From contig JBGUKB010000078.1 in the NCBI GenBank assembly GCA_045114235.1, positions 1,200 to 65,199 on the forward strand: a stretch of DNA of 64,000 nt. The letters run 5' to 3'. Made by a program: the position numbers and the translations under genes. The stretch comes from Victivallales bacterium (GTDB lineage: Bacteria > Verrucomicrobiota > Lentisphaeria > Victivallales > UBA1829). The notes below the pieces were generated by a model. That model saw only the letters and a list, made by a program, of their open reading frames with translations, was not told the origin of the DNA and did not search any database. How positions within the stretch are numbered: the first letter of the stretch is position 1; each line of letters begins with the position of its first letter. Below are positions 1 to 19,720 of this stretch, in pieces.

Positions 1-3000
1 TCCCAGCCGAGGTCGGAGTTGGTGAGGTGCGTGGCGGCGCCGTCGATGCCGACGGTGTAGAACACCTGACCGCCCGCGTAGGACATCACGACGGAATCCT
101 TGCCGGAACCGGTGAAGTCGCCGCAGCCGATCATTTCCCAGTTGGCGTCATAACCAGCGCCGAGGCTGACCCAGTTGTCGGTTCCATCGGTCCAGACGCC
201 GAGGGCGCCGAGTTCGGTGGAGTGCCACAGGATGGAGTTCTTGCCTTCGTTGCCGGTCATGTTGCCGACCTTGTTCTTCCACACATAGCCCTCATTGTTG
301 GTGAGGTAGCTGATGTTGACCCAGTTGTCGTCCGTGTCCATCGCATCGAGGTAGTAGCCGATGAACGCGCCCTTGATGCCGCTGACTTCGACGTTGCCGA
401 CGAGGACGGAGTCCGCCTTGCCGTTGGCGTTCATGTCGTAGGCGCCGAGGACTTCCCAGGTGTCGACCGGGTGCGTCGCGTTCGTGCTCTGCCACGTGCT
501 CGTGCCGTCCAGCCAGAAGCCGATCTGGCCCTGGCCGCCGGTGTACTGGAACATCACGTCGGAGATGCCGTTCGCATTGACGTCGCTCTTCGCGATGTAG
601 GTCGGAGTCGGCGGGACCGGCTTCTCGGCGATCGTGAGAGCGAGATCGCTGTTGTCGGTGATGGCGAGCGCGTAGGTGAAGTCGCCGATCACGGTGGCTT
701 CAGCGCCGACCTTCAGCGTGTAGTTGCCGAACAGGACATCGCTGTTGAAGGTCGCAGCGTCGGAGGCGAGCAGGTAGGTGCCCGCGGCGGCGGTGGCGAC
801 GGACAGCGTGTAGGACGTGGTGCCGAAGACCTTGGAGAAGCCGTTGAACTGGGCGGCTTCAGCCGTGGCGTTGGCAGTGTCGAACGCAACCGTACCGTTG
901 ATCGTGATGGCCGTGTCGAACGTGGCCTTGCCGACGACGGTGGCGGGAGCTTCGACCGTGATGGTCTTGCTGTAGCCGTCAGCGAAGGAGACTTCGCCGC
1001 CGACGACGAAGACCTTGCCGTCGTCCGTGGTGCCGGCGATGGCGCCCGCGAGGGTCGCGAACGCATCGTAGCCGATCGTGGCGGTCTTGGTGCCGACCGT
1101 GACGGTGTCGCCGGCCTGCTTGTTGGACCATTCGCTGTTCGCATAGGTCACTTCCGGGGTTTCCGGAGTCGGCGGGACATAAGCGGCGACGGTGAGGATC
1201 AGGTCGCCGTTGGTGTCCACGAGGGAGACCGTGTAGGAGAAGTCGCCGATGATGGCAGCTTCGCCGAGCTTCAGCGTGGTGTTGCCGAACGCGATGTCGG
1301 AGGCGAATCCGGTCGCGTCGGAAGCAAGCGTCCAGGTGCCCGCGACCGCGGCAGCGGTCAGCGTGTACTTCGTGTCGCCGGTGACGTACTGGAAGCCGCC
1401 GAACTGAGCGCCGTTCGCGGCATACTGCGTGTCGAACGCGACGGTACCGTTGATGGTAACGTTGGTCGTGAACACGGCATTGCCGGCGATCGTGGCTTCA
1501 GCGTTGACGGTGAGGGTCTTCGCGATGTCCTTGGTGAAGGACGCCGTGCCGCCGAGGACCTTGACTTCGCCGTAGTCGACGACGGTGTCGTAGGCCTCAT
1601 CGCCGGTCAGGAACGCGTTGTAGCCGAACGTTGCGCCGGTGGCGACGACGTCGCCGGCCTTGGCGCCGGTCCATTCGCTGTTCGCGTAGGTGACGGTGAT
1701 CGGGGCGACAAAGACTTCCTTGGTCAGGCTGAGGACGTTGTTGTCGTCAAGAGCCAGCGTGTAGTCGATGCCGTCGATCTGGACCTTCTGACCGAACACG
1801 AGATCGCCGATCTTGCCCGCGGAGGTCTGCAGGACAGCATTGCTGCTGAAGCTGGCGGCCTCGGTCGCGAGAGCGTAGGTGCCGTCGGCCTGGTCAGCCG
1901 CGATCGTGATCGTGATGGTCGGAGCGCCAGTGAGGATCGAGTAGTTCGTCACGGAAGCGCTTGCGCCGGCACTCTGAGCGGAGATGTCGAAGTCGAGGAT
2001 GGAGCCTTCCGCGAAGGAGACTGCAGCACCCGTGAGCATTCCGAGACCGCCGGTGACCTTGGCGCCGGATTCGACCGTGAGCACGCCCTTGCCGCGGACG
2101 TTCGCGTTGACCGCGACCGCGCCGCTCTGGAGCGTGAGGGAACCGACCGCAGTACCGGTACCGATCGCCAGGCCGTTGCCTTCGCTGCCCTCGACGGTGG
2201 AGTCGGCGGTAGCGGTGACAGTGCGGACGATCGGGTTGGAGAACTGGACGTCGCTGGCGAGGATCGTGATGGAGCCGTTGGCGGAAACCGCAGCGGCGGC
2301 CGCATCGGCCGTTGCAAACGCATCGGAACCGATGATGGCGGTGCCGCCAGGAACCTCAACGACGGATCCGGCTTCTTCGCCTTCCCAGAGGGCGTTCACG
2401 AACACGTCGAGCTTCTTCATGTTCAGGTGGACTTCGTTGCCGACCACGTTGATCGTGTAGGCGGAGTCGTCTGTGATGAAGGAGCCGTCGCCGAAGATCG
2501 CGGTGGCGGTCAGGACCAGGATATCGGTCGTGGTGCCGTCGACGAACGGAGCGGCGGAGATCATGAACTTGCCGTCATTGACGAGGCTGCCGTTGATCGT
2601 GATCACATCGGATCCGTTGTAGTTCAGCTGGGCCGTCGCATCGATCGAGATGCTGTTGGACTTGAGGGCGGAGGTGGTGACCTTGCCGCCGGTCACGTAC
2701 AGGACAGCGTCGTCGGCCGTGAGGGCCGGGATGGCCTCGGTGGCACTGCCGAACGCGTTTTCGCCGTAGAACAGGGCTTCTCCATCATAGGAGGCGCCGA
2801 CCTTGACGGTTTCGGCGGTGTAGTCGCTGTTCACGTAGATGTCCTTGACCGCGCCCTTCAGCACGACGGCGTTGAGAACAGGCGTTTCGCCGGCGGTCTC
2901 ATAACCGAAGACGAGAGAATAGGGCGAGCCTTCCTCAAGTCCGATTACGGAGATGCCTGCTTCCGTGATGTTCTCGAAACCGCCGGTGACGGTCACAGTC

Positions 3001-6000
3001 TCTTCGCCCGAATCCGGATCGACGGTCTTGGTGACGGTCGTCGCCATGTCGATGAAGACCTTGCTCGCGCCGGTGTAGCCGGTCACGTCGATGTTGATCT
3101 TCGCTTCGGTGGTGGCCATGCGGAGCGTGGTACCGGTGAAGTAAGCATCGGACGCAAGGTTCATTTCGCGGAACCAGTACGTGTAGTTGACGTTGACGTC
3201 GCCGGAGACGTTCAGAACCTTCTTGCCGGTGAAGGAAGTCAGTTCTGCATCTCTGGTGGAGTTGTAGTCGAGACGTCCGGCGAGCAGGTAACCCTTGAAG
3301 TCGACATCTTCGAGGTTGAAGATGAAGTCGGAGTTGCTGTTCGGAGCGTGCGTGTCCCAACCGGTGCCCCAGTTGTTGTCGAGGGCCAAGCGCATGGTGT
3401 TGCGGCCATCGCCGAAGGTGCTGTCCTTGATATTGACGGTGATGGTGCCCTGAGAGCTCTGGTCGCCGTCCTGGATTCTCCACCACTTGTCGGCGGGAGT
3501 CTCAACATTGTTGAGGTTGATGACCACGTCGGCGCCGAGGAACGTCACGGTTTCGCCCGCGATCTCGACCACATCGGTCTTGCCGACCGGGGAGTCGCCG
3601 ATGAACACGATGTCATCGTAGATGGTCGAATCCGTGAAGTTGAACGTCACGAGGGACGGAGCAAGCTCAGTGCCTTCGATGTAGGTCAGGTTGTAGCCGA
3701 TCAGCGTCTGGTTGCCGCTGGCGCTGCCCATCGTCGAGCCGGTCACGTTGAACGTGGCGCTGCCGATGATGCGGTTCGGGTGGTTCCACGGACCGTCGCC
3801 CTGATCGTAGGTGCCGGTCACGGTGCCGAGGAAGTAGCTCGTGGCGCCGGTGATGAACGTGCTGTTCTCGATGTTGACCTCGACGTCGCCGAAGTAGATC
3901 ATGTCATCGTTGGTGTAGCCGTTGATCAGGACGGGCACGGTGCTGTCGGTGAGGTACAGGTTGGCGATCTTGCCCTGGGTGCTGACATCGTAGCCGGGAC
4001 GGCCGTTGACGTACAGGCCCATGCCGTTCGACATCTTGTTGACGGCCTCGGTCAGGGAGTAGAACGCATTGACGCCCCAGAGCAGGGTTTCGCCGGTGAT
4101 GCTGTTGGTCTGGCCTTCGACGATGCCCTCGCCCGCGGTACCGAACGCGATATCGACGTAGAAGTTATCGACGCGCATCGCGTGGATGCTGTTGTCGATG
4201 TGGCTGTAGTAGGCATGGAACGCGCCGGAGCCTTCGCCGGTGAGGACGATGTCGTCATCGGTGAAGTTGGCGATGCCGGTGCCGGTGCTGAGCACGACGG
4301 CGTCGGACGCAGCCTGGACATAGCCGGTCATGTCGATGGTGATCGTGGTGCCTGCGGCCTGTTCGATGCCGCCCGCGACGGTCAGGGTTCCGGCCTTGGC
4401 GGTCAGAGCGCTGAATCCGGAGATGGACGCGACGGAGAAGTCAGTGTTGACCGTGAGGGTGCCGCCGTCGCCGGCGAGGGCGCCGATCGCGGTACCGGAG
4501 GTGTTCGCACTGACGATCACGTCGTTGCCCTTCGTGAGCGTGACGGCTTCGGCGGAGGTGCCGCCCTCGATGTAGAGGGTGCTGCCCTTGCCGACTGCCG
4601 CCGCGGCGCTCGCGACGGAACTGAACGCGTTCTTGTTCCAGACGAGAGCCATGTCGCCGATGAACTTGTCGTGGACGTCCGCTTCGGTCCAGTCGGCGTT
4701 CGCGTAGGCGTTGCCGACGAGATCGGAGGTGACGAGCAGGGTCTTGCCGTCATCGAGGAACTCGTAGCCGAAGCCAGCGCCGATGACCGAGACGGCGGGT
4801 TTCACATCGCCGAAGCCGCCTTCCACGACGAGGACCTTCTTGGTGAACTCCGCGAAGTTGGAAGCGTCGATCGTGATGGCCGCACCGTTGAAGCTGGTCA
4901 GGTTCACGAGGCTGTTGGCGTCGAGCACGACGTTGTCGAAGCCGGTGACGTTCTTGACCGTGGCGTTGCCATCGAAGTACAGGGTGCTGATGCCGGTGAC
5001 GTCTTCCTCGCCGCCGTTGACGGTGCCGCCGATGGACACGCCGTCGGCGATGGTGACCGCGGCGTCGCCGGTAACCTTGGAGAAGGTGCCGCCGGCAACG
5101 ATGACGTTCGTCACAGTCGCGCCCTTGTTGATCGTGATGTCGACGGATGCGACATCCGGAGCCGGATTGAACTGTTCAACCCATTCCGGCGCTTCGTCGG
5201 TGCCGACATTGACCATGGTCACGCTGGCGTTGGTGCCGCCGACCACGTTCGAGATCTCGCCGCCGTTGACGACGGTGGTGTAGCCGAACGTGTAGAGCGA
5301 ACCGGAAGCGCTCATGACCTGGATCTTGGCATTGACACGACCGTCGTCGACGGCCGCATAGGCCTTCTTCATCGTGTCAACGGCGTTGTCGCCGAACACG
5401 AGGTAGTTGTTCGTGCCGTCTTCTTCAACGACCGAGACGCCGGTGGTGGCTTCGCCGTAGTCGTTGCCGTAGAAGACGTCGAGGCCAGGTCTGTAGACGA
5501 AGACGCTCGTGGAGCCGACGACGGCCTTGAAGCCTTCGATCTCTTCGCCAGCCGCATCGACGTACTTGGCGGCGATTTCCACACCCTCGGCAGGAGCGTT
5601 GATCGTGGTGCCGACCACTGCGAACGTGGCGACATCGCTGTCCTTCGTGCCGCGGAGGATGAAGCCTTCGCCTTCGGACATCGAGATCGTGCTGCCGGTC
5701 AGCAGTGCGCCTTCGGCGATCTCAATGCTGTTGAACTCTCTGACTCTGCGGATCTGGCTGGTGCCGCCGGTCACGTGGAGTCTGCGGACGCCGCTGATGT
5801 TGTTCAGGCCGCCGTCGGTCTGGCCGCGGCCGCCGTTCAGGTTGCCGTCCGCCATGGTGACGCCGCTGATGTAGACATCGGCTTCGCCGCTCCAGGAACC
5901 GGTCGTATCGGAACCGAAGAGGCCGATCGCCATGGTGTCGCCGGTGAAGGTGGAGTCGGTGACCGTCAGGGTGAGATAGGTGTTGTTCGCTTCCTGCGGT

Positions 6001-9000
6001 TCCCAGACCTGGATCCACTTGGCTGCCGGAGCATTGACGTTCGACAGGGTGACGTTGACTTCCTTCAGCTGGACGTCTTCCTGGCCTTCAGCCTTGCCGT
6101 TGAAGACGCGGTCGAAGAGCATCAGGTCGCCACGGAGGTCGTAGTCGGCGACCGTGACGTTCACGGTGCCGCCGGACAGGTTGGCATAACGCGCGATACG
6201 GAAATCGTTGGTGTCATGCGTGCCCTTGGAGATCGTGATGTTCCAGGCCGTGTCGTCATAGGACTCGGTCTGCGCATTCCAGTTGCCGACGACCATTTCC
6301 TGGTGAGCACTGTCATTGCCCTGGCCTGCGATGGCCGCGAACCAGGTGAGCGTGCTGGCAGTGATCACGGCGGTGAAGTCGCCGTCGCGGAACTTCTCGG
6401 TGCTGTCATCGTTGTAGCCGGCAACGAAGCCGCCGGTGGTGATGCCGGTGACGTTCACGTTGATCGGCGCAGCCGTGAAGAAGTAGTAGAAGGCGCCCGC
6501 GGTGCCGCCGTCCGCGAAGAGCGTGCCGCCGGTGACCGCATAGCGGGCGGCGTTGACGTTCCATTCGGACATGTTGTAACCGTAGACGATCGTAGCGGTC
6601 TTGCCGTCGATGGAGACGACTTCGCCGTTCCGGTCGGCAGTGGCGTTGGCATCGAGGAACGCGAATTCACCGCGTTCGACCGCGACGAGAGCCTTCTTGG
6701 TCTCATCGTAGTACGGCATCAGGCGGTCGGCGTTGTTCTGGGCACCGACTTGCGTACGGCTGAAGGTCTGGCCGGAAACAGGCTGGATGAAGTTGGCAAT
6801 GCCGTTGGCAGGCGCCAGGAGGTTGCCTGCGCCGCCCTTGTAGCCATCCATGTTCACGACGAGTTCGCCGCCCTTCTCGATGTAGGAGATGCCGGTGCTG
6901 ACGTTCACGTTGTTGCCGGCGCGGAAGCGGAAGTACTGGATGCCGTCCATCGTGGCGATGGAGGTAGCCTTGGAACCAGCCACGTCATTCGCGATCACGC
7001 GATAGCCGACCGTGGAACCGGCGACGCCCGCGAGGGAGCCGATGGTAACCGCGGAGGTGCTGGCGGTGATGCGGACGGTGGAGCGGTGATCGGCATCGGC
7101 GCCGTCGCCGATGACGAAGCCGCCGAACGAGCCGCCGTCGATCTGCAGGTTGACCTGGCCGATGCTGGTGAGGTCATACGTGCCGGAGAAGTTGCCGTCG
7201 AGCACATACAGCGTGTAATCGCTGGTGGTGTGGGCGATGGCTTCTTCCATGGTCTTGAACGCGTTCACGCCGTAGACGAGGAGGTCTCCGTTGTAGGAGA
7301 GGCCGTAGACGTCTTCGGTGAAGCTGCTGCAGAGGTAGACGTTGCCCGGGTCGGTGGAGACGAGCCATAGCTCATCCTTCCCGTTGTAGTAGTACTTGTC
7401 ATCGCCGTCAGCGGTGATGGTGATCGTCTTCATGTCGAGGTCCGCGAGGCCTTCGGCCTTCAGCACGAGCTTGCTCGGGCCGGTGTATTCGGCGGAAGCC
7501 AGGTGGATAGACTTGAGGTCGAGCGCGCCGTTGACGGTGAGGGTGTCGTTGCAGTCGATTTCGAGCGCGGTGACCGAGAGGTCGCCGGAGATGGTGGCGT
7601 TGGCCGTGACGGTCAGTTTGTCGAAATCGGTGACGTTGCCGCGGACGTTGACGGCTCCGGAGATCGTCAGGCCGCTGGTGCCGCCGGTGACGCTGTCCTT
7701 GGAACCGACGATGTCGCCGCCGGTGAAACCGGTGACGGCCGGTTCGACGCTCTCATCCGTGTACTGGAAGCCGAACGTGCCGCCCGCGAGTTCGAGGTTC
7801 GCGTTGCCGGAAACGGTCTTGCCTTCCTCGGCGATGGTGATGCCGGCGAAGAGGCCGTCGGAAACGACGAGGTTCACGAACGCGGTGGAATCCTGGTCGG
7901 CGATGGTGCCGTACAGCGGATCGAGCTCTTCAGAGGAACCGAAGGTGCCGCCGGTGATGTACAGCGCGTTGCCGGCCTTCAGAGCCGCCTTGGCAGCTTC
8001 GAAGCCGACGAGCTCGTCGTAACCTTCTTCTTCGCCGTAGGCGTTGCCCTTGACCACGACTTCTTCGCCGTCGAGGACCGTCAAGGCCATCGCTTCGCCG
8101 GTCGGGGCGATCTGGCCGACGACCACGTCGTTGCTGGTGTAGCCGGGGTTGTAGTACAGGTCTGCGACGGAGTCGTTGTCCCAGATGACCAGGCCCTTCT
8201 TGCCGGCCAGGAGCTGGTACTTCGCGGCATCCTGCTCGAGGTTGAGCTCGATGCCCGCGGCGTCGTTCGCGAAGCCGTTGGACAGGCTGACCAGGACCTT
8301 GGAGGCGCCGGTGTAGCCCTTGGCGTCGACCTTGACGATACCGCTGTCGCGGAACGTGATCGTGCCGCCGGAGAGGAACGTATCCACGTTCATATCCAGT
8401 TCCTGGAACCAGTTCGCCCACTGGATGAAGTTGGACGACCCCTTGATGATCAGGGTGGCGTAGTTGCCGCCGCCGACCGAGTTGTTGGTGAGGCCGGACG
8501 CGGACAGGAGCGCGTTGACGTGGGAGTTCTCGACCGTGAAGAAGATCGGCGAAGCGTCGCTGTGACGGTCGTTGTTGCCGTCGCCGAACGCCGCGATACG
8601 GGCGTTGTTGCCGCCCGTGCCGGGCATAATCGTCGAGTTCTTGATGGTCAGGCTGATGGAATCGAACTGACCCCAGTTGGTGACCTGGGCCAGGCCGATC
8701 CACTTCGCGCCGCCGCCGAACGTGACGTTGTCGAAGGTGACGTCAAGGACGGGGTGGACTTCGGGATCACCGATGCCGGTGCCGGAATCGCGCGTACCCG
8801 CACGGGCGTCGCCGAAGATCGGCTTGAGGTCGCCGCGGATGTCCCAGTTCTTGAAGGTCAGCGAGAGGGTGCTCTGGAGCGTGGCCCACTGGCCGAAGAA
8901 CCGCAGGTTGCTGTCGTTGCGGCCATTTTCCAACGTGATCGTGATCGGGGCATGATAGCTCAGGGACGTGTTGACGCGTTCCCAGGTATTGCCTCGGCCG

Positions 9001-12000
9001 AGGATATCGTTGAAGTTCGAGTTGTCGGCATTGTTGTTCTGGCCGTTCTCATCCGGGGAGATCGGAAGGAGGCTGCCGTCAATCGTAATGGTGACCGGAG
9101 TGTAGATGTGCGTATCATTCGGGGCACGGTTGCGGTTGATCGGATGGAGTCTGCTGACAGTTCCGCCGACGACGTACAGATTGAGTGCGCTCGTATTGGA
9201 CGGATTGACCAGGCCTTCGTTGTAGTTGGTGACATACAGCGTGCCGCCAGTAATGACCTTGCCCATGGCGGTATTCAGGTCGCTGAAGGCGTTGGAGCCC
9301 CACTGCAGGACGTCGCCGTTGAACATCGTCGTGCCGGTGATCTCTTCCGTGAAGGTCGGATCGAAGTAGATGCGCGTGAGGTCCATCAGGAACACTTCCT
9401 TGCCGGAAGCATAGACGGTGACGCCCGGATCGCAGGCGTACTGGGTCACGCCGGAGATGCCGGCGGTGGTGCTGATGACCTTGCGCAGGTTGGTGCCTTC
9501 TTCGGTCGCGACAGCGGCGCCGGTCAGGTAGATCGTGCCGCCGGAGAGGTCGATGTAGCCGGAATCCAGGAAGCTGGCGGTGCTGACGGTGAGGAGCTTG
9601 ACGCCCTCGATGCCGCCGACCTTGGAGCTGCCTTCGAGCAGAAGCACGGTGTCGTCCGCGCCGGCGATCACGCCGTCGACCGTGACGTTGTCGCCGAGGG
9701 TGATGGCCGCCTTGGTGACGGAGTAGACGCCTTCGCCCGCGGTGAGGGCGATGCCGCCGACGCTGCCCGCGTCGATCGTGATGCTCATTCCACTGGCATC
9801 GGTCTTGTCGACGCCGTAGATGTAGCCTTCGACCTTGCCGCCTTCCATGGCGAAGTTGGCGCCGTTCAGGTGGATCTCGTCGGCGAGCGTGCCGCCGGTG
9901 ACCGTCACGGTGTAGTCGTCAACGGGGTTGCCGAGGTTGGCGACCGCATCGGCCGCGGTGTTGAACGCGTTGAAGCCGAACTCGAGGTAGGTGCCGTCGG
10001 CGAGGTAGGTGCCGGTGGTGGCTTCCGAGTAGTCGGCGTTCAGGAACGTGTTGGTCGGGATCGTGCTCTTCAGGACGATTTCCTTGCCGTCCGCGGTCTT
10101 GAAGACGCTGTATTCGCCGCCTTCGTTGCCGAGGATCTGGATCTTGCCGACGTCGCCGGTGATGCCGTCGGTCGTGGAGATCACGACGTGCGAGCTGCCG
10201 AGGTAGTTGGTCGCGTCGATCGTGATGACCGCGTCGGAGAAGTTCAGGCTGTCGGCCGTGATCACGTTGTCCGCGAACATGGAGATGCCGGAGCCGGAAA
10301 CATCGCCGAAGTCGACGACCGCGCCCTTGGCGACCTGGACGTCTGCGAAGTTGGCGACATCGCCGAGAATGGCGTTGCCCTTGACGTTCATCGTGGACTT
10401 GCCGGAACCATCGGCGGAACCGATGACGGCGCCCGCCGCGACGGTGAGGGTCGAAGCCTTCCTGTCGCCCATGGTGACGGTGCCGAACTCGACGCCGCTC
10501 TTCACGTCAACGTTGTTGCCGTTGAAGTTCTGGGCTTCGTAGGTGCCGCCGGTGACGACGATGGTGCCGCCCCATTCGGAGGCGTAGATCAGAGGCTTCT
10601 CGAAGCTGGCGTGCGCGTTGCCGCCGAAGAACAGCTCCTTGCCGCCGACGGTCTGGCCGCTGATGTCGTCGGTGTAGGTGTCATTGACGTACATGTCGTC
10701 GGTCTTGTCGAACACGCCGATACGGCTGACGACCCAGCGGTCGCTGTTGTTAGCGGTAACATGGCGGAAGCCGCTGACGATGATTTCGCACTGGCCGGTC
10801 AGGTCGTTGTCGCCGATGACCGAGATGCTGCTCATGGCCTCGTCGGTGTAGATTTCGCCGGCGGTGATCACGGTGTGCGTGCCGCCTTCGTAACCGGACA
10901 TGTTGACGTAGATGTTGATCGGGGTGCCGGCGTTGTCGAGGACGTCCGTCGACAGGTTTTCGCCGCGGTAGGCCGTCGTGAACTGCAGGTTGTTGCTGAG
11001 TTCAAGTCTGGCGTCCGCGTCGATGATCAGGGTATCCCATTCCATGACCCAGCTGGCACGCGTGACGGCGCTCTTCTCCGTCGCGACGATGTGCAGCGTG
11101 GTCGGGGCGTTGAACACCTGGAGGGCGTTCGCGCCGTGCGTCAGGGAGTCGCCGGGACGAAGGGTGTTCGTCACGGAGGAACCGCCCATGGTGACGGTGA
11201 CGCTGCCGGCCGTGAAGGTGGACTGGTAGATGTTGGCGCCGCTGTTGGCGACCCAGTCGGCCGTGTGGATCACATAGAAGTGCTCACCGACCGTGGAGTC
11301 GTACACTTCGACGTTGATGTTGGCATTGATCTTGGTCGGCGTGGAGCCGCTCATGTTGATGCCGTAGAAACGTCCGAGGTAGGAATCTTCCACCGTCAGG
11401 TTGATGTCGATCGGGTCTTCTTCCTTGGTGCCGAAGTCGCCGTAGCCGATGTAGACCGAGGTGAACGTGCTGCCGACGATGGAGGCGTTGATGTCGCCGT
11501 CGATCACGCTGGTGTAGGTGTTGCCGGTGATGTAGAGGGCGCCGCCGTTGGTGTTGGTCGCGTTGAACGTGAAGTTGCCGTTCATCGTGTACGCCTTGTT
11601 CAGGCCGTAGATGGAGGTGGTGACGTTCGTGCCGACCAGCACGGTGGTGTGGTCGTTGTCGCTCACGAAACGGTCGCCTTCCGTGCCGTAGAGGCCGGAG
11701 GAGCCGCCGTTGAACTCGAGGGCGGTGTCGATGACGGCGCTGCCGCGCTGTCCGTCGTTGGTGGTGAAGCCGACCAGGACGAGCATGCCGTTGTCGGCCT
11801 GGGCCGCCGCGATCGCTTCATCCTTCGTCGCGAAGACGTTCACGCCCGCGAAGAGGGCGTCGCCCGTCGCAGCGTCAACGGTATCGCCGTCGACGAATGC
11901 GGACTGGTCTTTGCGGAAGTAGACGCGGTCGGCGGTAACGAGATATAGGTCGCCCGCGTGCACGGCTTCGCCGGTGAGGACCTTCGCGGCATAGGATTTC

Positions 12001-15000
12001 TTGCCGGTCGGGGTGATGATCGTGACCGTGGAGGCGTCGAGCGTGACCTTGGTGGGATCGACGTCGAGGACCAGCGTGGAGCCGGAGCCTTCTTCCGCGT
12101 CGATGACGATCTTGGTTTCGGCGGGCATGGTGCCGGTGAGGGTCAGGACCGCGTCGGCGTCGATCGTGAGCGTGGAGGCGGAGGCGATCGTGTCGATCGT
12201 GCTGTCGTCGTCGATGTAGATGGTCTTCGCGGTGACAGAGCCGACCACGGAGTCTTCGATCTCGACGTCGAATCCGGCTGCGACAACGTCCATGCCGGTA
12301 TTGTCGCCGGTGATGACGATCTTGGCGCCGGCCTTGGCGGCCGCGACTGCATCCGCGACGGACGCGAACGCGTTCTTGCCGAAGACGAGCGTATCGCCGT
12401 CGACGACGATCTTCTTGTCCGCGGAGAAGGAAGTGTTCACATAGAGCTCGTCGAGGGAGTAGATCGTGACGGAGGTCTCGGTCTTCACGTATTCGTAGAG
12501 GCCGGCCTTCGCGCCTTCGAGCTTGATGGTCCAGTCGTTCACGCCGCCTTCGGCGCGGACGATCTCGTTGGCGCCGGTCAGGCCGCCGACGTTGACCGTG
12601 ATGGTCTTCGTGCCGGAGGTCGTGAGGTTGCCGGAGACGACGAGGTTGGAGGTGTCGGACATGTAGATGCTGCCGCTGAGGGTCAGGGCGTTCTCGAGCT
12701 CGGGTTTGGCCTTGTTCGTGAACGCGACTTCCGAGTCGGCGTTGATCGTGATGTTGCCGTCGATCACGGCGCCGCCGGTGACGTACAGCTGGGAGGTCGT
12801 CAGGTCCTTGACGCCGGTGAGGGAACCGGCGCTGATGAAGCCGGTGTTGACCAGATTGGCATTGTTCAGGATCAGGCCGCCGTTCTGCGTGAAGACGCCG
12901 TCTCTGGACGTGGCGCGGAAGAACAGGTCGCCTTCGTTCTTGAAGGTGCCGCCAACGGAAATGTCACCGAGGGCAGTGATTCTGCCGTCGTTGAAGAAGT
13001 TGCCGCCGATGATCGCAGCGCTGGTCATGACGAAGTCGTAGTTGTTCAGGTTGCCGACCAGGAGCAGCGTGACGTTGTTGGGCTCGGCGAGATTGCGGTA
13101 CGTGCCGAGCACGCCGTAGTTGTCGAGGTTGGCGGCGCTGATGACGCCGGCGTTGATGCCGCGGCGGTTCAGGATGTCGCCGTTGATGATAAGAGTGTTC
13201 TCCAGGGAGACTTCACTCTTGTCCGTGCCGTTCGAAACGTTCAGCGTACCGCCGGTGACGTTCAGGGCAGTGAAGTTCTCGACGGAGCCGACCTTCGCGT
13301 TGCCTTCGACGTTCAGGATGCGGGCGGTGCCCTTCGTGCCGCCGTCGAGAGCGCCGGTCACGGACGCGCCGTAGATCAGGCCGTAGAACGTGCCGTTGCT
13401 GCGCTGTGCGACCGTGCCGCCCTTGAGGGTGACGTCGACCGCGCCGGTGATGTTCGCGCCGTTGCCGATGGAGACGTCGGAGAACAGGCCGCCGGCGAGG
13501 GTCATGTCGACCGTGCCGATGGTGTTGTTGCTGGCGCCGACGACGAGCTTGCCCGCGCCGCCGGTGATGCTGGCTTCGATCGCGCCGACCTTGTTGGCGA
13601 CGCCGGTGATGACCGCTTCTTCGCCTTCGCCTTCGACGGTGGCGTCGGCGATGATCAGGTTCGAAGCGACGACTGCATCGCTGTAGACGAGTTTGTCACG
13701 ATCGGCCGCGGCGGAGGAGAGACCAGCCACGTAGTTGCCGACGGTGGAGCCGGCGAGCTTGATGGAGGTGCCCTGTCCTTCGGCGTACACGTTTCCGATC
13801 ATGTTGCCGCCGGTCAGGTCGTTCGTGGCCTTGCTCGCGCCGCCGTAGACGTTGCCGATGGTGGAGCTCTTGATCGTGACGGTGCCCGCGAAGCCTTCCT
13901 GGTCGGCAAGCTTCACGTCGCCGATCACGCTGTTGCCGATGGAAATATCGGCAGCGCCGACGGCCGCGCCGGTCAGGTCGATGGTGCCGATGCCGGCGAC
14001 GTCTTCGTCCCCGGAATAGTCAATCGAGAGCTTCGCAGCGCCGGTGACATTGCCGACCTTGATCGCATTAATATTATTTGTATAAGTGGCGGAGAAGTTC
14101 GCGGAAGCGACATCGGCAGCGGTATCGCCGAGGACGATGTCTTTTCCGTTGAGGTCGATGTTGTGGACATCGCTGCCGGAGAACGAAGTCACGTAGTCCT
14201 TCGTCACGACGTCCGCATCGAACGTGGTCGGCTCGACGGACGTGTCGTCGCCGTAGACCATGATCGTGGTCGTGGCCTTGTCGGTGACATGGGCCTGCGC
14301 CGAGGCAACGGAGACGTAGCCCTTCGGGCCGAGTTCGGTGGGCTGGTCGTCAGCGTAGTTGCTGTTCACCAGCAGGACGGTGCTCGTGGCGTTGTGGAGG
14401 ACCAGCTTGTCGCCGGAGAGCTCGTAGTAACCCGGGAAAATACCCTTGGTATATTCGTGATCGCCGACCACGATGGCCAGGTCATCGGAAATGCCGGTGT
14501 CGGAAAGACCGGAAACGAGCACGGTGTCGGGCTCGGAGAGGTCGCCGATCACATAGATCGTGGAAATATTGGCGAGAGAAGCGACATTGACGGTGGAACC
14601 GAGCGCGATGCTCAGTTTGCCGCCGTCGGCCACGGTGATGCTGTTGGCGCGGACTTTGGCGCCGGCATTGACCGTGACGTTTTTGAAGCGGTCGATGGTG
14701 CCGGTGACGGTCTGGATGTCGGACGCGCCGAGGATCAGGTCGAACGTATCCACTTCCGGAGCGTCGCCGTTGCCGTTGCCGCGGATGTTGGCCGCGACCG
14801 ATCCGGCGACTGTGAGCTTGTAGGAGCCGGTCCAGTCGCCCGGGTTGTTGAAGTAGCCGATGTTGATGTCGCCGCCGACGCTGGATCCGGAGATGACGAC
14901 GTTGTAGTTGGCCGCGACGGTCTTGTTGCCCTGGCCGCTGTCGGTCTGGACGCCGCGGAAGGAACCGCTCACGGTCACGTTGGAAACGGTGCCGATCACG

Positions 15001-15623
15001 TTCGCGAGACTATCGGGATTGTTCTCGTTGTTGAGCTTGCCACTGTGAATGTGGAAGTCGCCGTTGGTCACGGCCGTATTCGTCACGGAGAACTTGATGT
15101 CGCCCCGGATCGTGCCGTACTGCTGGTAGGTCGTGCCGCCGCCGATCGTCAGGGAGTTGATCGTGGAACCTTCGACGTTGACGTCGACAAGCCCCTCGAT
15201 GACGATGTCGTTGCGGAGAGACGCGGGAGCCAGCGTATTGCGGACCAGCGAGTTCACCAGCGTGATCTTGATGCCGTTGCTGTACGTGCCCGCGGATTTC
15301 TTGGTGCCATACAGGTAGTTGCAGGACGCGCCGGACAGATAGAGGCCGTAGGTCCCGTCGCTGTAGAAGCTGTCGTTGTCGACGTTGTAGTTCGAGAGGT
15401 ACATGGTGGCGCCTTCGGCAGCGTAAATGGTCTGGCCGCCGAGCGTGATCCACTTCTTGGAAGTACCGGGATTGACGGCGTTCGCACCGTCCGTCACGTC
15501 GCCACCACTGGCGCCGTAAGTTAGCTTTTCCCCAGTGATCGAACTGGTACCGCCCAGCGCGTCGATCGCTTCCTGGGATGTATACGCCGGATCGACGTAC
15601 ACATTGCCTTGTGCTCTTGCCAT
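1..15623 (-). CDS. Giant repetitive surface/adhesin-like protein. The 5' end is complete and the 3' end is cut by the window edge (>5,200 codons). Contains beta-helix-type modules, tandem ~180-aa modules and FG-GAP-like blades
   Basis: ATG at 15623 with AAGGAG at 15632-15637 (8-nt spacer). Hand translation gives MARAQGNVYVDPAYTSQEAIDALGG...WITLGGQTIYAAEG at the N-terminus. Near position 1 it gives ...YDMNANGKADSVLVG...GDFTGSGKDSVVMSYAGGQVFYTVGIDGAATHLTNSDLGW. The track lists no minus ORF in this frame (end mod 3 = 2), which fits a frame with no stop inside the window. The three big plus ORFs are the codon-aligned antisense frame. Confidence 0.8.
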   Translation of the reverse strand, partial: MARAQGNVYVDPAYTSQEAIDALGGTSSITGEKLTYGASGGDVTDGANAVNPGTSKKWITLGGQTIYAAEGATMYLSNYNVDNDSFYSDGTYGLYLSGASCNYLYGTKKSAGTYSNGIKITLVNSLVRNTLAPASLRNDIVIEGLVDVNVEGSTINSLTIGGGTTYQQYGTIRGDIKFSVTNTAVTNGDFHIHSGKLNNENNPDSLANVIGTVSNVTVSGSFRGVQTDSGQGNKTVAANYNVVISGSSVGGDINIGYFNNPGDWTGSYKLTVAGSVAANIRGNGNGDAPEVDTFDLILGASDIQTVTGTIDRFKNVTVNAGAKVRANSITVADGGKLSIALGSTVNVASLANISTIYVIGDLSEPDTVLVSGLSDTGISDDLAIVVGDHEYTKGIFPGYYELSGDKLVLHNATSTVLLVNSNYADDQPTELGPKGYVSVASAQAHVTDKATTTIMVYGDDTSVEPTTFDADVVTKDYVTSFSGSDVHNIDLNGKDIVLGDTAADVASANFSATYTNNINAIKVGNVTGAAKLSIDYSGDEDVAGIGTIDLTGAAVGAADISIGNSVIGDVKLADQEGFAGTVTIKSSTIGNVYGGASKATNDLTGGNMIGNVYAEGQGTSIKLAGSTVGNYVAGLSSAAADRDKLVYSDAVVASNLIIADATVEGEGEEAVITGVANKVGAIEASITGGAGKLVVGASNNTIGTVDMTLAGGLFSDVSIGNGANITGAVDVTLKGGTVAQRSNGTFYGLIYGASVTGALDGGTKGTARILNVEGNAKVGSVENFTALNVTGGTLNVSNGTDKSEVSLENTLIINGDILNRRGINAGVISAANLDNYGVLGTYRNLAEPNNVTLLLVGNLNNYDFVMTSAAIIGGNFFNDGRITALGDISVGGTFKNEGDLFFRATSRDGVFTQNGGLILNNANLVNTGFISAGSLTGVKDLTTSQLYVTGGAVIDGNITINADSEVAFTNKAKPELENALTLSGSIYMSDTSNLVVSGNLTTSGTKTITVNVGGLTGANEIVRAEGGVNDWTIKLEGAKAGLYEYVKTETSVTIYSLDELYVNTSFSADKKIVVDGDTLVFGKNAFASVADAVAAAKAGAKIVITGDNTGMDVVAAGFDVEIEDSVVGSVTAKTIYIDDDSTIDTIASASTLTIDADAVLTLTGTMPAETKIVIDAEEGSGSTLVLDVDPTKVTLDASTVTIITPTGKKSYAAKVLTGEAVHAGDLYLVTADRVYFRKDQSAFVDGDTVDAATGDALFAGVNVFATKDEAIAAAQADNGMLVLVGFTTNDGQRGSAVIDTALEFNGGSSGLYGTEGDRFVSDNDHTTVLVGTNVTTSIYGLNKAYTMNGNFTFNATNTNGGALYITGNTYTSVIDGDINASIVGSTFTSVYIGYGDFGTKEEDPIDINLTVEDSYLGRFYGINMSGSTPTKINANINVEVYDSTVGEHFYVIHTADWVANSGANIYQSTFTAGSVTVTMGGSSVTNTLRPGDSLTHGANALQVFNAPTTLHIVATEKSAVTRASWVMEWDTLIIDADARLELSNNLQFTTAYRGENLSTDVLDNAGTPINIYVNMSGYEGGTHTVITAGEIYTDEAMSSISVIGDNDLTGQCEIIVSGFRHVTANNSDRWVVSRIGVFDKTDDMYVNDTYTDDISGQTVGGKELFFGGNAHASFEKPLIYASEWGGTIVVTGGTYEAQNFNGNNVDVKSGVEFGTVTMGDRKASTLTVAAGAVIGSADGSGKSTMNVKGNAILGDVANFADVQVAKGAVVDFGDVSGSGISMFADNVITADSLNFSDAVITIDATNYLGSSHVVISTTDGITGDVGKIQILGNEGGEYSVFKTADGKEIVLKSTIPTNTFLNADYSEATTGTYLADGTYLEFGFNAFNTAADAVANLGNPVDDYTVTVTGGTLADEIHLNGANFAMEGGKVEGYIYGVDKTDASGMSITIDAGSVGGIALTAGEGVYSVTKAAITLGDNVTVDGVIAGADDTVLLLEGSSKVGGIEGVKLLTVSTASFLDSGYIDLSGGTIYLTGAAVATEEGTNLRKVISTTAGISGVTQYACDPGVTVYASGKEVFLMDLTRIYFDPTFTEEITGTTMFNGDVLQWGSNAFSDLNTAMGKVITGGTLYVTNYNEGLVNPSNTSALNLYVVGGTVSRLHPINRNRAPNDTHIYTPVTITIDGSLLPISPDENGQNNNADNSNFNDILGRGNTWERVNTSLSYHAPITITLENGRNDSNLRFFGQWATLQSTLSLTFKNWDIRGDLKPIFGDARAGTRDSGTGIGDPEVHPVLDVTFDNVTFGGGAKWIGLAQVTNWGQFDSISLTIKNSTIMPGTGGNNARIAAFGDGNNDRHSDASPIFFTVENSHVNALLSASGLTNNSVGGGNYATLIIKGSSNFIQWANWFQELDMNVDTFLSGGTITFRDSGIVKVDAKGYTGASKVLVSLSNGFANDAAGIELNLEQDAAKYQLLAGKKGLVIWDNDSVADLYYNPGYTSNDVVVGQIAPTGEAMALTVLDGEEVVVKGNAYGEEEGYDELVGFEAAKAALKAGNALYITGGTFGSSEELDPLYGTIADQDSTAFVNLVVSDGLFAGITIAEEGKTVSGNANLELAGGTFGFQYTDESVEPAVTGFTGGDIVGSKDSVTGGTSGLTISGAVNVRGNVTDFDKLTVTANATISGDLSVTALEIDCNDTLTVNGALDLKSIHLASAEYTGPSKLVLKAEGLADLDMKTITITADGDDKYYYNGKDELWLVSTDPGNVYLCSSFTEDVYGLSYNGDLLVYGVNAFKTMEEAIAHTTSDYTLYVLDGNFSGTYDLTSIGQVNLQIDGGSFGGFVIGDGADADHRSTVRITASTSAVTIGSLAGVAGSTVGYRVIANDVAGSKATSIATMDGIQYFRFRAGNNVNVSTGISYIEKGGELVVNMDGYKGGAGNLLAPANGIANFIQPVSGQTFSRTQVGAQNNADRLMPYYDETKKALVAVERGEFAFLDANATADRNGEVVSIDGKTATIVYGYNMSEWNVNAARYAVTGGTLFADGGTAGAFYYFFTAAPINVNVTGITTGGFVAGYNDDSTEKFRDGDFTAVITASTLTWFAAIAGQGNDSAHQEMVVGNWNAQTESYDDTAWNITISKGTHDTNDFRIARYANLSGGTVNVTVADYDLRGDLMLFDRVFNGKAEGQEDVQLKEVNVTLSNVNAPAAKWIQVWEPQEANNTYLTLTVTDSTFTGDTMAIGLFGSDTTGSWSGEADVYISGVTMADGNLNGGRGQTDGGLNNISGVRRLHVTGGTSQIRRVREFNSIEIAEGALLTGSTISMSEGEGFILRGTKDSDVATFAVVGTTINAPAEGVEIAAKYVDAAGEEIEGFKAVVGSTSVFVYRPGLDVFYGNDYGEATTGVSVVEEDGTNNYLVFGDNAVDTMKKAYAAVDDGRVNAKIQVMSASGSLYTFGYTTVVNGGEISNVVGGTNASVTMVNVGTDEAPEWVEQFNPAPDVASVDITINKGATVTNVIVAGGTFSKVTGDAAVTIADGVSIGGTVNGGEEDVTGISTLYFDGNATVKNVTGFDNVVLDANSLVNLTSFNGAAITIDASNFAEFTKKVLVVEGGFGDVKPAVSVIGAGFGYEFLDDGKTLLVTSDLVGNAYANADWTEADVHDKFIGDMALVWNKNAFSSVASAAAAVGKGSTLYIEGGTSAEAVTLTKGNDVIVSANTSGTAIGALAGDGGTLTVNTDFSVASISGFSALTAKAGTLTVAGGIEQAAGTTITIDMTGYVQAASDAVVLSTGTGIANFTDDDIVLTGEGSGAFHAYYSHIDNSIHAMRVDNFYVDIAFGTAGEGIVEGQTNSITGETLLWGVNAFYSLTEAVNKMSNGMGLYVNGRPGYDVSTQGKIANLYLTDSTVPVLINGYTNDDMIYFGDVEVNIENSTFITGATSYFLGTVTGTYDQGDGPWNHPNRIIGSATFNVTGSTMGSASGNQTLIGYNLTYIEGTELAPSLVTFNFTDSTIYDDIVFIGDSPVGKTDVVEIAGETVTFLGADVVINLNNVETPADKWWRIQDGDQSSQGTITVNIKDSTFGDGRNTMRLALDNNWGTGWDTHAPNSNSDFIFNLEDVDFKGYLLAGRLDYNSTRDAELTSFTGKKVLNVSGDVNVNYTYWFREMNLASDAYFTGTTLRMATTEAKINIDVTGYTGASKVFIDMATTVTKTVDPDSGEETVTVTGGFENITEAGISVIGLEEGSPYSLVFGYETAGETPVLNAVVLKGAVKDIYVNSDYTAETVKVGASYDGEALFYGENAFGSATEAIPALTADDAVLYVTGGKVTTSALKSNSISIDATAQLNYNGSDVITINGSLVNDGKFMISAAPFVDGTTTDILVLTATAIFGDGSFITDDSAYTINVVGNEVHLNMKKLDVFVNALWEGEEAGSVVEVPGGTAIIGSDAFATADAAAAAVSANGSITILASDVQFSNPIVRTVTATADSTVEGSEGNGLAIGTGTAVGSLTLQSGAVAVNANVRGKGVLTVESGAKVTGGLGMLTGAAVSFAEGSILDFDISAQSAGASASVTNYSILTGAPTITITIAADQADGTYALATEAASFSSNAVLQTSAGKIGDLVFGQKVQIDGIDYTLALDDNNVLSLTKEVFVAPITVTYANSEWTGAKAGDVVATGATFGYNAFLTGDEAYDTVVDYGEVKVLGGTASFTKDIAKTLTVNAEATIAGNAVFTTNVTINGTVAFDTQYAANGAQFGGFQYVTGDTKYTLTAAAVAGTWTLASDATGFASDIAFGNTTLKLGEAAIIGDFSYTVSLVDTNGDLILTVAAYVPPTPETPEVTYANSEWSNKQAGDTVTVGTKTATIGYDAFATLAGAIAGTTDDGKVFVVGGEVSFADGYSKTITVEAPATVVGKATFDTAITINGTVAFDTANATAEAAQFNGFSKVFGTTSYTLSVATAAAGTYLLASDAATFNSDVLFGNYTLKVGAEATVIGDFTYALAITDNSDLALTIAEKPVPPTPTYIAKSDVNANGISDVMFQYTGGQGQIGFWLDGTSTWQSTNATHPVDTWEVLGAYDMNANGKADSVLVGNVEVSGIKGAFIGYYLDAMDTDDNWVNISYLTNNEGYVWKNKVGNMTGNEGKNSILWHSTELGALGVWTDGTDNWVSLGAGYDANWEMIGCGDFTGSGKDSVVMSYAGGQVFYTVGIDGAATHLTNSDLGW

Positions 15624-15653
15624 AGCTTTTTCTCCTTGGTTGTTAAGCTAGGT

Positions 15654-15983
15654 TTACAAGTTTGTTGCGAGATTGATACTTTTTGTGTTTGGTTTGCCTT
15701 TCTCTTTCTGGGTTGTGTTTGGGGTTTCCTTTCGGGTTGTTGGTTGAGTTTGAATGCGGGATGAGAAAAAAATCGTTCTGGTTAAGCTCGAACTCGCGGA
15801 TTCCGGTTCCGCCTGAACGGAGCCGGGGTCCGCCGGGGAGGTCTCCCTGCACACGGCGTCCCGTTTCCAGCGAAGCGCCCGGACGAGGCGGCGTTCCGGC
15901 ACAACGCGGGCGCACGCGAAAAAGCGCGGAGCATCAGCCCCGGCGCGGCTCGCCGTTTCCGCCTGTTTCCAGTTCGTCGTCAT
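15654..15983 (-). CDS. Hypothetical 109-aa upstream ORF, same frame as the giant gene and separated from it by TAA and TAG
   Basis: ATG at 15983 preceded by GCAGGAGGCAAAACG (AGGAGG, 7-nt spacer). The first ~60 codons are GC3-rich like real genes. The C-terminal half is low-complexity (A/C-rich DNA). No recognisable family. Confidence 0.25.
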   Translation of the reverse strand: MTTNWKQAETASRAGADAPRFFACARVVPERRLVRALRWKRDAVCRETSPADPGSVQAEPESASSSLTRTIFFSSRIQTQPTTRKETPNTTQKEKGKPNTKSINLATNL

Positions 15984-16507
15984 CGTTTTGCCTCCTGCGG
16001 TTTCCCGCGGTCGTTCCGTTCGCTTCTCCGGCTCCGGGGTTCGGTTCCCGGAGCCGCTTCTCCGAACCGCCTGTGCGGCTCTTCGATCGAGTTCAAGTCA
16101 GTGAAAATCGTATCCGTTTGCCTGAATCCGGTTCAGGCGCCGCCTGCGCGGCATCCATCGTTCCGTCCGGCGTCTTTTCCGTCCGTCTCCGCCCTGCCTC
16201 ACCCGGCTTCCGCCGAGTTCAGTTCAAGTTCGGATGGCCGGCCTTCCGCCGTCCGGGGTTCCCGGCTTACCACCCGGTCCCGGCCTCCTGTTCCGCTCGT
16301 CTGCTGTTCGTTTCGTTCATGGTTCGTATCTCGTTTCGGTTTGTTCGTTCGTTTCTGTTCAACTCTGCCCTGTGCCGTCCTGTGCCGTTCGTCCTGTCCG
16401 TTTCCGTCCGTTCTTCCGTTCGTTGTTTCCGTCTTGTATCCTGTTCGATTTTTTGAGCTTGTTTCTTGTGTTTTGCCCGCTCACAGGCGTTTTATTTATA
16501 TATTTCT
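15984..16507 (-). other. Long untranslated leader or ncRNA-like region, strongly T(U)-depleted on the minus strand and GGA-rich
   Basis: The plus strand is almost free of A (about 11 A in 16261-16500). About 30 GGA triplets occur on the minus strand in ~460 nt, clustered as ACGGA/CAGGA. No credible ORF. All three plus frames are open only because stop codons need A. Confidence 0.4.
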
Positions 16508-16514
16508 CGCGTAT

Positions 16515-16542
16515 ATTATACACGATATACAGCGAAATTCAA
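16515..16542 (-). promoter_or_regulatory. Candidate sigma70-type promoter for the leader and giant gene (TTGAAT-N16-TATAAT)
   Basis: Minus strand TTGAAT (16542-16537), 16-nt spacer, perfect TATAAT (16520-16515). It sits at the edge of the AT-rich intergenic block. Confidence 0.3.
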
Positions 16543-18759: not shown

Positions 18760-18895
18760 GGAGGACAAGTCCTCCACTGCAGTAGTGCGCGGCTCTGCTC
18801 GCGCACACTGTAAGCAGTGACGAAACAGTGCCGGGCTCCGCTCCGGCACACTGCAAGCAGTGACGAAGCAGTGCCCGGCTCCGCTCGGGCACAGA
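18760..18895 (+). repeat. 3'-end multi-hairpin repeat element (family copy 1): hairpin A plus three tandem ~43-nt C/B hairpin units
   Basis: Starts 1 nt after the TAA stop. Hairpin A is GGAGGAC-AA-GTCCTCC. Then come GTGCGCG-GCTCTGCT-CGCGCAC, GTGCCGG-GCTCCGCT-CCGGCAC and GTGCCCG-GCTCCGCT-CGGGCAC, interleaved with CACTG-YAAG-CAGTG. Confidence 0.7.
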
Positions 18896-18917
18896 ATGAC
18901 ACCAAATACAATATAGG

Positions 18918-18955
18918 CTGCGGACGCCGCAACAAGCTCCGCGGCTTTTTCTTTT
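18918..18955 (+). terminator. Rho-independent terminator
   Basis: GCTGCGGA ... TCCGCGGC stem (one G.U pair) followed by TTTTTCTTTT. Confidence 0.6.
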
Positions 18956-18969
18956 CCTTAAGTCCTTAT

Positions 18970-19647: not shown

Positions 19648-19682
19648 TCCGGCGCATTTTCGCAAAAAGATTCGTTTCGAGC

Positions 19683-19711
19683 TTGAAAACAGGAAAAAAG
19701 GGTGGTATAGT
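19683..19711 (+). promoter_or_regulatory. Sigma70-type promoter TTGAAA-N17-TATAGT, 9 nt upstream of the ATG (leaderless geometry)
   Basis: TTGAAA 19683-19688, TATAGT 19706-19711, ATG at 19721, no SD. Confidence 0.45.
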
Positions 19712-19720
19712 TAGCGGGAA

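Follow-up and report, generated by a model that had tools for sequence, protein, structure and literature searches.

The window analysed here is a 64,000-nucleotide stretch of DNA from a Victivallales bacterium (assembly GCA_045114235.1, contig JBGUKB010000078.1, positions 1,200 to 65,199). Its first 15.6 kb are occupied by one giant gene, which lies on the minus strand and runs off the left edge of the window. The product is a string of capped, all-β modules that ends in a propeller, and the gene is preceded by a sigma-70-like promoter and a long, conserved leader RNA. The initial annotation, which was made from the sequence alone, had proposed that the three huge open reading frames (ORFs) on the plus strand of this region are the antisense shadow of a minus-strand gene.

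The giant gene and its antisense shadow

The features of the gene and of the opposite strand are as follows:

1..15623, minus strand: coding sequence (CDS) of the giant gene, codons 1–5207 of 5307 (open frame, GC phase, identity with protein P0041)
15632..15637, minus strand: Shine–Dalgarno sequence (SD) AAGGAG, 8 nt before the ATG (direct sequence reading)
27..7370, plus strand: spurious ORF of 2,447 codons in the antisense shadow, terminated by sense CTA codon 2752
7503..11948, plus strand: spurious ORF of 1,481 codons in the antisense shadow, terminated by sense CTA codon 1226
11958..15524, plus strand: spurious ORF of 1,188 codons in the antisense shadow, terminated by sense CTA codon 34

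The minus frame was translated from the reverse complement, starting at the ATG at 15623–15621 and ending at position 3. Its 5,207 codons contained no stop, in agreement with the claim that the frame is open to the window edge. The remaining frames of 1–15623 held 62–350 stops each, and the codon-aligned plus frame three, compared with about 150 expected by chance at 62.6% G+C. No earlier in-frame start is possible upstream of the ATG. The AAGGAG reported 8 nt upstream was located at 15637–15632 and is invariant across orthologous loci, an invariance that is partly forced by the search pattern. The G+C contents of codon positions 1, 2 and 3 (GC1/GC2/GC3) were 0.55/0.45/0.88, a pattern shared with every other credible gene in the window. 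Comparison with three orthologues showed that, of the sense codon positions, the second had the fewest base changes and the third the most.

The 3′ end of the gene was taken from a protein record, not from DNA. P0041 (5,307 amino acids (aa); source NCBI, 71.7-kb contig) equals the window protein over all 5,207 residues and runs exactly 100 aa beyond it, ending in '...GVDMSWTVIA', so that the part of the gene outside the left window edge is limited to 100 codons and the stop. The gene is real and 15.9 kb long, and positions 1–15623 of the minus strand hold its first 98%. The initial annotation had called this gene hidden, which overstates the case, since the exact protein had already been called on the minus strand; the gene is predicted in public data and its product is uncharacterised.

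Relatives of the protein are few. One body module, searched exhaustively with HMMER against 1.84 billion representative proteins, retrieved only 13, and five of these, P0041 included, were full-length proteins of 5,094–5,711 aa. The full-length orthologues come from Lentisphaeria-like metagenome contigs and are colinear with the window protein at 42–48% protein identity.

The plus-strand ORFs are present as described, and their breaks fall exactly at the only three sense CTA codons (7368–7370, 11946–11948 and 15522–15524). The possibility that they are the real genes, and the minus frame the artefact, draws on their great length, their GTG starts, and the choice of the equivalent strand by a public gene caller at the orthologous locus L001. 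However, in the plus ORFs the first codon base is the GC-rich one, opposite to what all other genes of the window show. Their translations are rich in G, V, A, D, R and E and almost without K, N, M and Y; this nonsense-like composition, noted initially, arises because the GC-rich third position of the sense codons becomes their first position. It is also the minus-frame protein that has colinear orthologues, confident structural models and a conserved folded C-terminal domain with Pfam matches. The plus ORFs were rejected as genes on composition, GC phase and codon-usage expectation, and the chance that they are real is negligible in our judgement. That they are a shadow is borne out by the GC3 phase, the colinear orthologues and the identical full-length public protein.

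Long antisense ORFs in fact accompany every gene in the window, as codon usage predicts. In 23 other window genes, TTA, CTA and TCA together account for 1.5 of every 1,000 codons, and shadow ORFs exist because these sense codons are almost unused. From the codon usage of the window, 8.6 antisense stops would be expected in the giant gene, and three were observed (two in each orthologue). The long antisense ORFs are within chance expectation for the codon usage of this genome.

The codon bias of the giant gene goes further than that of its neighbours. C-ending codons make up 66% of its codons, compared with 53% in 23 neighbouring genes (17326–63987), and A-ending codons number 223 where 348 were expected. 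ATA, TCA, TTA and CCA are absent, and ACA, GTA, AAA and GGA are depleted 4–10-fold; TCA and TTA are also wholly missing in three orthologues. We considered selection against antisense stops and rejected it, since the missing TCA and TTA are part of the general depletion of A-ending codons. The bias suggests selection for efficient or processive translation.

The L001 orthologue, interrupted by a scaffold gap, shares 60% identity with the window protein over 3,350 aa. The public gene call in the first 10 kb of that locus (3,478 aa) sits on the shadow strand, while the true frame (1–8552, minus strand of the locus; GC3 0.87) is uncalled upstream of the gap. Gene callers can thus choose the wrong strand, as one did here, and such calls may make this giant-protein family look rarer in protein databases than it really is. 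For the window itself the outcome is mostly reassurance: the very long ORF of this high-GC genome is real, and its antisense ORFs are artefacts.

Modular body and terminal propeller

The complete protein has 5,307 aa, a mass of 551 kDa, a pI of 4.17 and six cysteines; across the orthologue set the pI is 4.05–4.17 and the cysteine count 4–13. The parts of the protein map to the window as follows:

2427..15623, minus strand: modules 1–13, aa 1–4399, each a cap followed by an all-β solenoid-like run (cap profile, structural model)
621..2426, minus strand: three tandem short modules, aa 4400–4636, 4637–4818 and 4819–5001 (self-similarity, caps)
3..617, minus strand: propeller blades 1–4, aa 5003–5207, with blades 5 and 6 beyond the window (homologues, Pfam, structural model)

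The initial annotation had pointed to cap-like module starts. A profile hidden Markov model (HMM) built from this recurring motif, Y-[VF]-[ND]..[YF]....G...L.[FWY]G.NAF....A (strand, loop, short helix), extended them to 16 copies, 14 strong and 2 weak. The first is at residue 1, and the others are at aa 1053, 1227, 1636, 1850, 2078, 2483 (weak), 2753, 2980 (weak), 3375, 3630, 3814, 4253, 4400, 4637 and 4819. The 16 caps divide the protein into 16 consecutive modules of 147–1,052 aa, with similarity between modules of 25–52% when fragments were compared with each other by BLAST. The product is thus a string of 16 modules, each a cap and then an all-β solenoid-like run. The last three modules before the propeller are the tandem modules of about 180 aa that had been predicted; their self-similarity is 43–52%, and the last two are 52% identical. 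This tandem cassette is common to smaller paralogues and aligns with P0003 and with proteins of loci L004–L009.

Beyond the caps, the body of about 5,000 residues gave no Pfam or NCBIfam match, either in halves or one module at a time, and a sequence search of the PDB gave noise only. Residues 3816–4463 were modelled confidently with AlphaFold from a 5-row alignment (predicted local distance difference test (pLDDT) 82.7, predicted template modelling score (pTM) 0.80). The model is all-β with short strands, and its sole helices are exactly the three cap motifs. Its structural neighbours in the PDB are almost all right-handed β-helices (PL6 lyases, Ag43, UpaB, pertactin), and phage tailspikes, VacA and RsaA are also among them; all are non-significant, with a best E of 5.9e-3 and template modelling (TM) scores of at most 0.21. 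The earlier proposal of right-handed β-helix modules therefore stands as to the all-β fold and the kind of neighbour found, but the assignment is qualitative, and we describe the body as likely to belong to the β-helix fold class on the strength of the model. Membership of the chlamydial Pmp family was rejected, since its motifs are too few (GGA[ILV] 0–2 and FxxN 13–20 in more than 5,000 aa) and there is no match to the Pfam family Chlam_PMP.

The C-terminal domain (aa ~5003–5307) is better connected. Thirty-seven homologues were found in databases at 52–78% identity, and all 36 aligned family members match Pfam FG-GAP or FG-GAP_3 (PF01839 / PF13517) at E <= 1, the best at 1.8e-15. The window's own truncated fragment of 215 aa reached 17.1 bits against FG-GAP_3 (cut-off 26.9, E 0.0084), and a complete homologous domain (P0004) reached 27.2 bits against FG-GAP, above the gathering score of 22.1. 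The AlphaFold model of a complete homologous domain has 24 strands, a pLDDT of 84 (>90 over most of the domain) and a pTM of 0.81. It gave 107 structural matches in the PDB at E <= 0.001, nearly all of them propellers among the matches listed. The six sequence blades of the family carry D-x-D/N-x-D/N-G-x-x-D loops, and in the giant protein the calcium-loop motif D-x-[DN]-x-[DN]-G-x-x-D occurs at aa 5014, 5063, 5169 and 5214, in places equivalent to those in orthologues. The C-terminus of the product is therefore a propeller of the FG-GAP type, with six blades and calcium-loop motifs; the FG-GAP-like blades proposed for positions 1–600 were recovered at nt 3–617.

The best structural match of the propeller was UmbA4, an umbrella-toxin protein of Streptomyces (E 2.6e-11, TM 0.64); next came YWTD propellers with six blades and PVL, a lectin of the FG-GAP type. 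The C-terminal domain of UmbA4 is a six-bladed calcium-loop propeller lectin that binds a cell-surface glycopolymer (PMC13274773).

In these genomes the propeller, usually after at least one ~180-aa module, terminates many otherwise different proteins, some of which carry AIDA-like repeats or FN3-like domains. Its behaviour is thus that of a common cassette for targeting or anchoring. Faint or weak Pfam AIDA matches were seen in paralogues that carry this C-terminal cassette. Propellers of the family end in WTVIA, as in the window protein, or in the variant WQNIGWLA. In a species-representative genome collection, relatives of the C-terminal region all came from uncultured assemblies, with several paralogues per genome: three from named Lentisphaeria (two of them from one sheep-rumen metagenome-assembled genome (MAG)) and three from the unclassified MAG RUG12414.

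Some further observations were made on family members. Their C-termini differ among P0001, P0002, P0042 and P0045; P0001 (L001 10001–17341) is longer by about 1,250 residues, which contain repeats of ~130 aa ('...DDGDNGWNNYVYDKK...'), and its final residues are '...WQSIAALA'. Large paralogues share the terminal modules and the propeller, have AIDA-like or FN3-like upstream regions, and in no case have a signal peptide. RUG12414 has three or more of them (L004, L006 and L007, one MAG), and another lies at L013 26175–32292, 4 kb downstream of the L013 orthologue.

Promoter, leader RNA and gene neighbourhood

The giant gene and the neighbouring esterase gene are 1.7 kb apart, with no credible ORF in between. 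The features of this interval, and of the genes beyond it, are as follows:

16515..16542, minus strand: sigma-70-like promoter, TTGAAT, 16 nt, TATAAT (10 of 12 consensus positions)
15624..16514, minus strand: conserved, structured, U-poor leader of about 890 nt, from promoter to start codon
16320–16267, minus strand: upstream ORF (uORF) MNETNSRRAEQEAGTGW in the leader, 17 codons, conserved
15983–15654, minus strand: pseudo-ORF in the leader, 109 codons, with AGGAG 8 nt upstream
17326–22039: conserved neighbourhood of SASA esterase, DUF218 and SLC12-type permease genes (window; loci L010, L011 and L013)

The −10 region of the promoter ('GTGTATAATATACGCG') is invariant or nearly so in 20 loci, with one substitution in L017, and always lies 836–1,075 nt upstream of the SD. 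An extended −10 box was considered and rejected. The ~1 kb on the leader side has 75–80% nucleotide identity to orthologous loci, compared with 65–73% for the CDS. The leader contains 10% T and a variable (GAAC/ACGGA)n tract. Each orthologous locus carries a single copy (L010, L011, L013 and L014–L039 among them), and paralogues are not preceded by one.

Leader loci were gathered by an exact 20-nt pattern around the SD, and 20 distinct copies were aligned. The RNAalifold consensus has 169 pairs, with 91% of cells paired. Double-sided changes were seen in 33 pairs, counted on the same alignment that yielded the structure, compared with 17.5 ± 2.5 in shuffled alignments and 13–21 in slid controls. 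The best-supported helices are a long-range pairing of alignment columns 876–885 with 1217–1226, and hairpins at columns 892–912, 924–947, 1031–1059 and 1080–1103.

No Rfam family matched the leader at gathering scores. A weak match to RsmY (RF00195) at 16064–16158 scored 18.1 bits (E 0.12), where the gathering score is 57, and GGA motifs are mildly enriched (z 2.1–3.2); as a GGA-rich RNA of the CsrB/RsmY type the leader fails the Rfam gathering score. The leader, conserved, structured and absent from Rfam, is the most interesting by-product of the analysis, and with more than 20 natural variants aligned it is a tractable new RNA element.

In two orthologous loci the uORF spans 16–17 codons, its stop is at the same point and a 3-nt indel keeps the frame; a third locus has a version of 13 codons. 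Equivalents of the longer leader ORF, with 100–125 codons, are called as genes in public annotations (L011 9675–9980, L013 6241–6618). The pseudo-ORF at 15983–15654 was nevertheless rejected as a protein gene, as its frame is not preserved between loci though its nucleotides are, and it is probably non-coding. A conserved intrinsic terminator was also rejected; the sole terminator-like site inside the leader, at 15942–15927, is not conserved.

At three orthologous loci, as in the window, a SASA-type (sialate O-acetylesterase-like) esterase gene adjoins the giant gene and diverges from it. The DUF218 protein and the SLC12-type permease come next at two of the three, again as in the window. The genes downstream of the giant gene differ between orthologous loci.

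Two further features of the window were observed. A 43-nt tandem repeat (2.6 copies, 86% match) lies at 18784–18893, between the SASA esterase and DUF218 genes, and contains a GC-rich hairpin-like core. A Cas9 gene of 1,026 aa (37756–40836, minus strand; domains HNH_4, RuvC_III and Cas9_a) adjoins a CRISPR-like array at 36731–37617, which has about 13 units of 66 bp and the 36-nt repeat GCTTGTAGAGTTCAAACGGTACACTTGATT. Neither cas1 nor cas2 was recognised beside the Cas9 gene and array.

Function, export and comparison with known systems

The reading that we favour, and consider somewhat probable, is that the gene encodes an abundant extracellular or cell-surface adhesin or fibre with a terminal lectin-type propeller, in rumen Lentisphaeria. 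The solenoid modules would form a long rigid stalk, and the propeller would act as a lectin, whose glycan ligand may lie on the cell's own envelope, for anchoring, or on plant fibre or another cell. The protein would leave the cell without a Sec signal peptide. By analogy with type I substrates, folding of the C-terminal propeller triggered by Ca2+ outside the cell is a reasonable possibility. Transcription would start at the near-consensus promoter and proceed through the structured leader of about 0.9 kb. The combination of promoter, leader, perfect SD and strong codon bias suggests high, regulated expression.

Several points weigh against this reading. The lectin match is one of fold, at 18–20% identity, and the same propeller shape is also found in non-lectins, such as the YWTD receptors of the same match list. 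The model of the body comes from a thin alignment, and the body is without a significant sequence or structure match to any characterised family. Finally, the protein has no signal peptide and no secretion genes nearby, and its extracellular site is deduced from composition and fold class.

The signs of high expression also bear on a second possibility, that of a self-assembling surface layer (S-layer) or sheath protein, very abundant and held by the propeller on the cell's own envelope polysaccharide. Consistent with this are the very strong codon bias, the near-consensus promoter, the perfect SD, strict single-copy orthology with conserved synteny, and the weak structural likeness to RsaA. 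Structured leaders stabilise some S-layer mRNAs, and the long structured leader here resembles them. However, 5,307 aa is far above typical S-layer size, no lattice-forming domain was recognised in the protein, and the propeller occurs on many paralogues of different length, as fits a general anchoring or targeting module. We therefore regard a surface layer as unlikely.

How an adhesin or fibre of this kind would be exported was examined from both ends of the protein. The initial annotation had stated that there is no N-terminal signal peptide, and indeed a hydrophobic segment at the N-terminus was missing from all seven full-length proteins examined. The maximal 10-residue hydropathy in their first 70 aa is 0.6–1.4, compared with 1.9 for the neighbouring secreted esterase, which has such a segment, and 22 metagenomic N-termini of the gene begin directly in the first cap. 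Type V features are also lacking: there is no PF03797, no PF05860 and no signal peptide, and no TpsB-like neighbour near L010, L011 or L013. Membership of the autotransporters and of the two-partner secretion (TPS) proteins was rejected on the missing barrel, TPS domain and signal peptide.

The initial annotation had suggested a C-terminal signal of the type I style. Under this explanation the protein would be a type I substrate, threaded C-terminus first through an ABC transporter, membrane fusion protein and TolC-like channel (ABC/MFP/TolC) encoded elsewhere, and the terminal propeller, on folding with Ca2+ outside the cell, would draw the rest of the chain out in the ratchet-like way known from the RTX repeats of LapA, SiiE and RsaA. 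The lack of a signal peptide, the pI of 4.2, the scarcity of cysteines in a giant repetitive body, the concentration of calcium-loop motifs at the C-terminus and the presence of RsaA among the weak structural neighbours all fit. The evidence particular to type I export does not. The RTX nonapeptide (GG.G.D) occurs 0 times in P0041 and 0–1 times in four other orthologues, and RTX membership was rejected for this reason. No ABC/MFP/TolC genes were found among the called genes of the window, which includes 48 kb upstream of the giant gene, or within 10 kb either side of the orthologous loci L010, L011 and L013. The chain closes with WTVIA, which is modelled with confidence as a propeller strand and not as a free tail bearing a signal. 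The suggestion thus found no positive support, and we consider type I export possible but doubtful.

A third explanation is a contact-dependent or polymorphic toxin, similar to CdiA or MARTX, in which the stalk presents a terminal effector. CdiA and FHA proteins typically have giant β-helical stalks, and the best propeller match, UmbA4, is part of a toxin-targeting particle. There is, however, no TPS or toxin domain, and no immunity gene or TpsB neighbour near L010, L011 and L013; the C-terminus is a conserved propeller and not a variable toxin tip. Toxin delivery is accordingly very improbable.

The adhesin or fibre reading can be joined with the leader in a more speculative proposal, in which the propeller would represent a new determinant of export or anchoring, playing a part like that of RTX/type I signals or of the type IX C-terminal domain, and the leader an undescribed cis-regulatory RNA, the two forming a lineage-specific system. 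The GGA/GAAC-rich leader might be titrated by a protein of the CsrA type, or might stabilise the mRNA, and so control synthesis of the 551-kDa protein. We put this forward as an outside possibility.

The analysis defines a narrow, uncharacterised family of proteins of ~5,300 residues from rumen Lentisphaeria, with four hallmarks: 16 capped solenoid modules, a lectin-type propeller, no recognisable secretion signal, and a structured leader. If the propeller does anchor through a glycan, the family is a candidate for attachment to plant fibre or to other rumen cells.

Among known systems, the type I RTX adhesins (LapA, SiiE, MpIBP, FrhA) are similar in having thousands of residues in a repetitive, acidic, nearly cysteine-free chain, no signal peptide, and Ca2+-binding motifs with a ligand-binding region near the C-terminus. 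They differ in their Ig-like (BIg) repeats, GGxGxDxUx nonapeptides, C-terminal signal and usually adjoining genes for the ABC transporter, MFP and outer membrane protein; the window protein has capped β-solenoid modules, no RTX and no transporter genes nearby. Ag43, AIDA-I, pertactin, UpaB and FHA belong to the same all-β right-handed solenoid class and dominate the list of structural neighbours. Such type V and TpsA proteins need a Sec signal plus a C-terminal β-barrel, or a TPS domain plus TpsB, all absent here, and the window protein consists of 16 separately capped modules in place of the one continuous helix of type V passengers.

RsaA, the S-layer protein of Caulobacter, has no signal peptide, is Ca2+-dependent, β-rich and very highly expressed, and is anchored to cell-surface polysaccharide via a terminal domain. 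It is a weak structural neighbour of the body model, but it has only 1,026 aa, RTX-type repeats, adjacent type I genes and N-terminal anchoring. UmbA4 (PDB 9oee) shares with the window propeller its six blades and conserved calcium-loop motifs and is its best structural match; it differs, at 18–20% identity, in being a 671-aa protein of a toxin particle, composed of trypsin-like, bulb-lectin and propeller parts. PVL (2bwr) has seven blades, and ligand binding by the window propeller is predicted only.

Lentisphaerae are reported to be enriched in proteins of more than 5,000 aa without COG assignment (PMC11573180). The window protein belongs among these huge proteins of Lentisphaerae and the PVC group, for which the survey gives no architecture, family or regulatory element (PMC11573180). 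In its overall character it is a member of a familiar class, that of giant, repetitive, β-rich surface proteins, and represents a variant within it.

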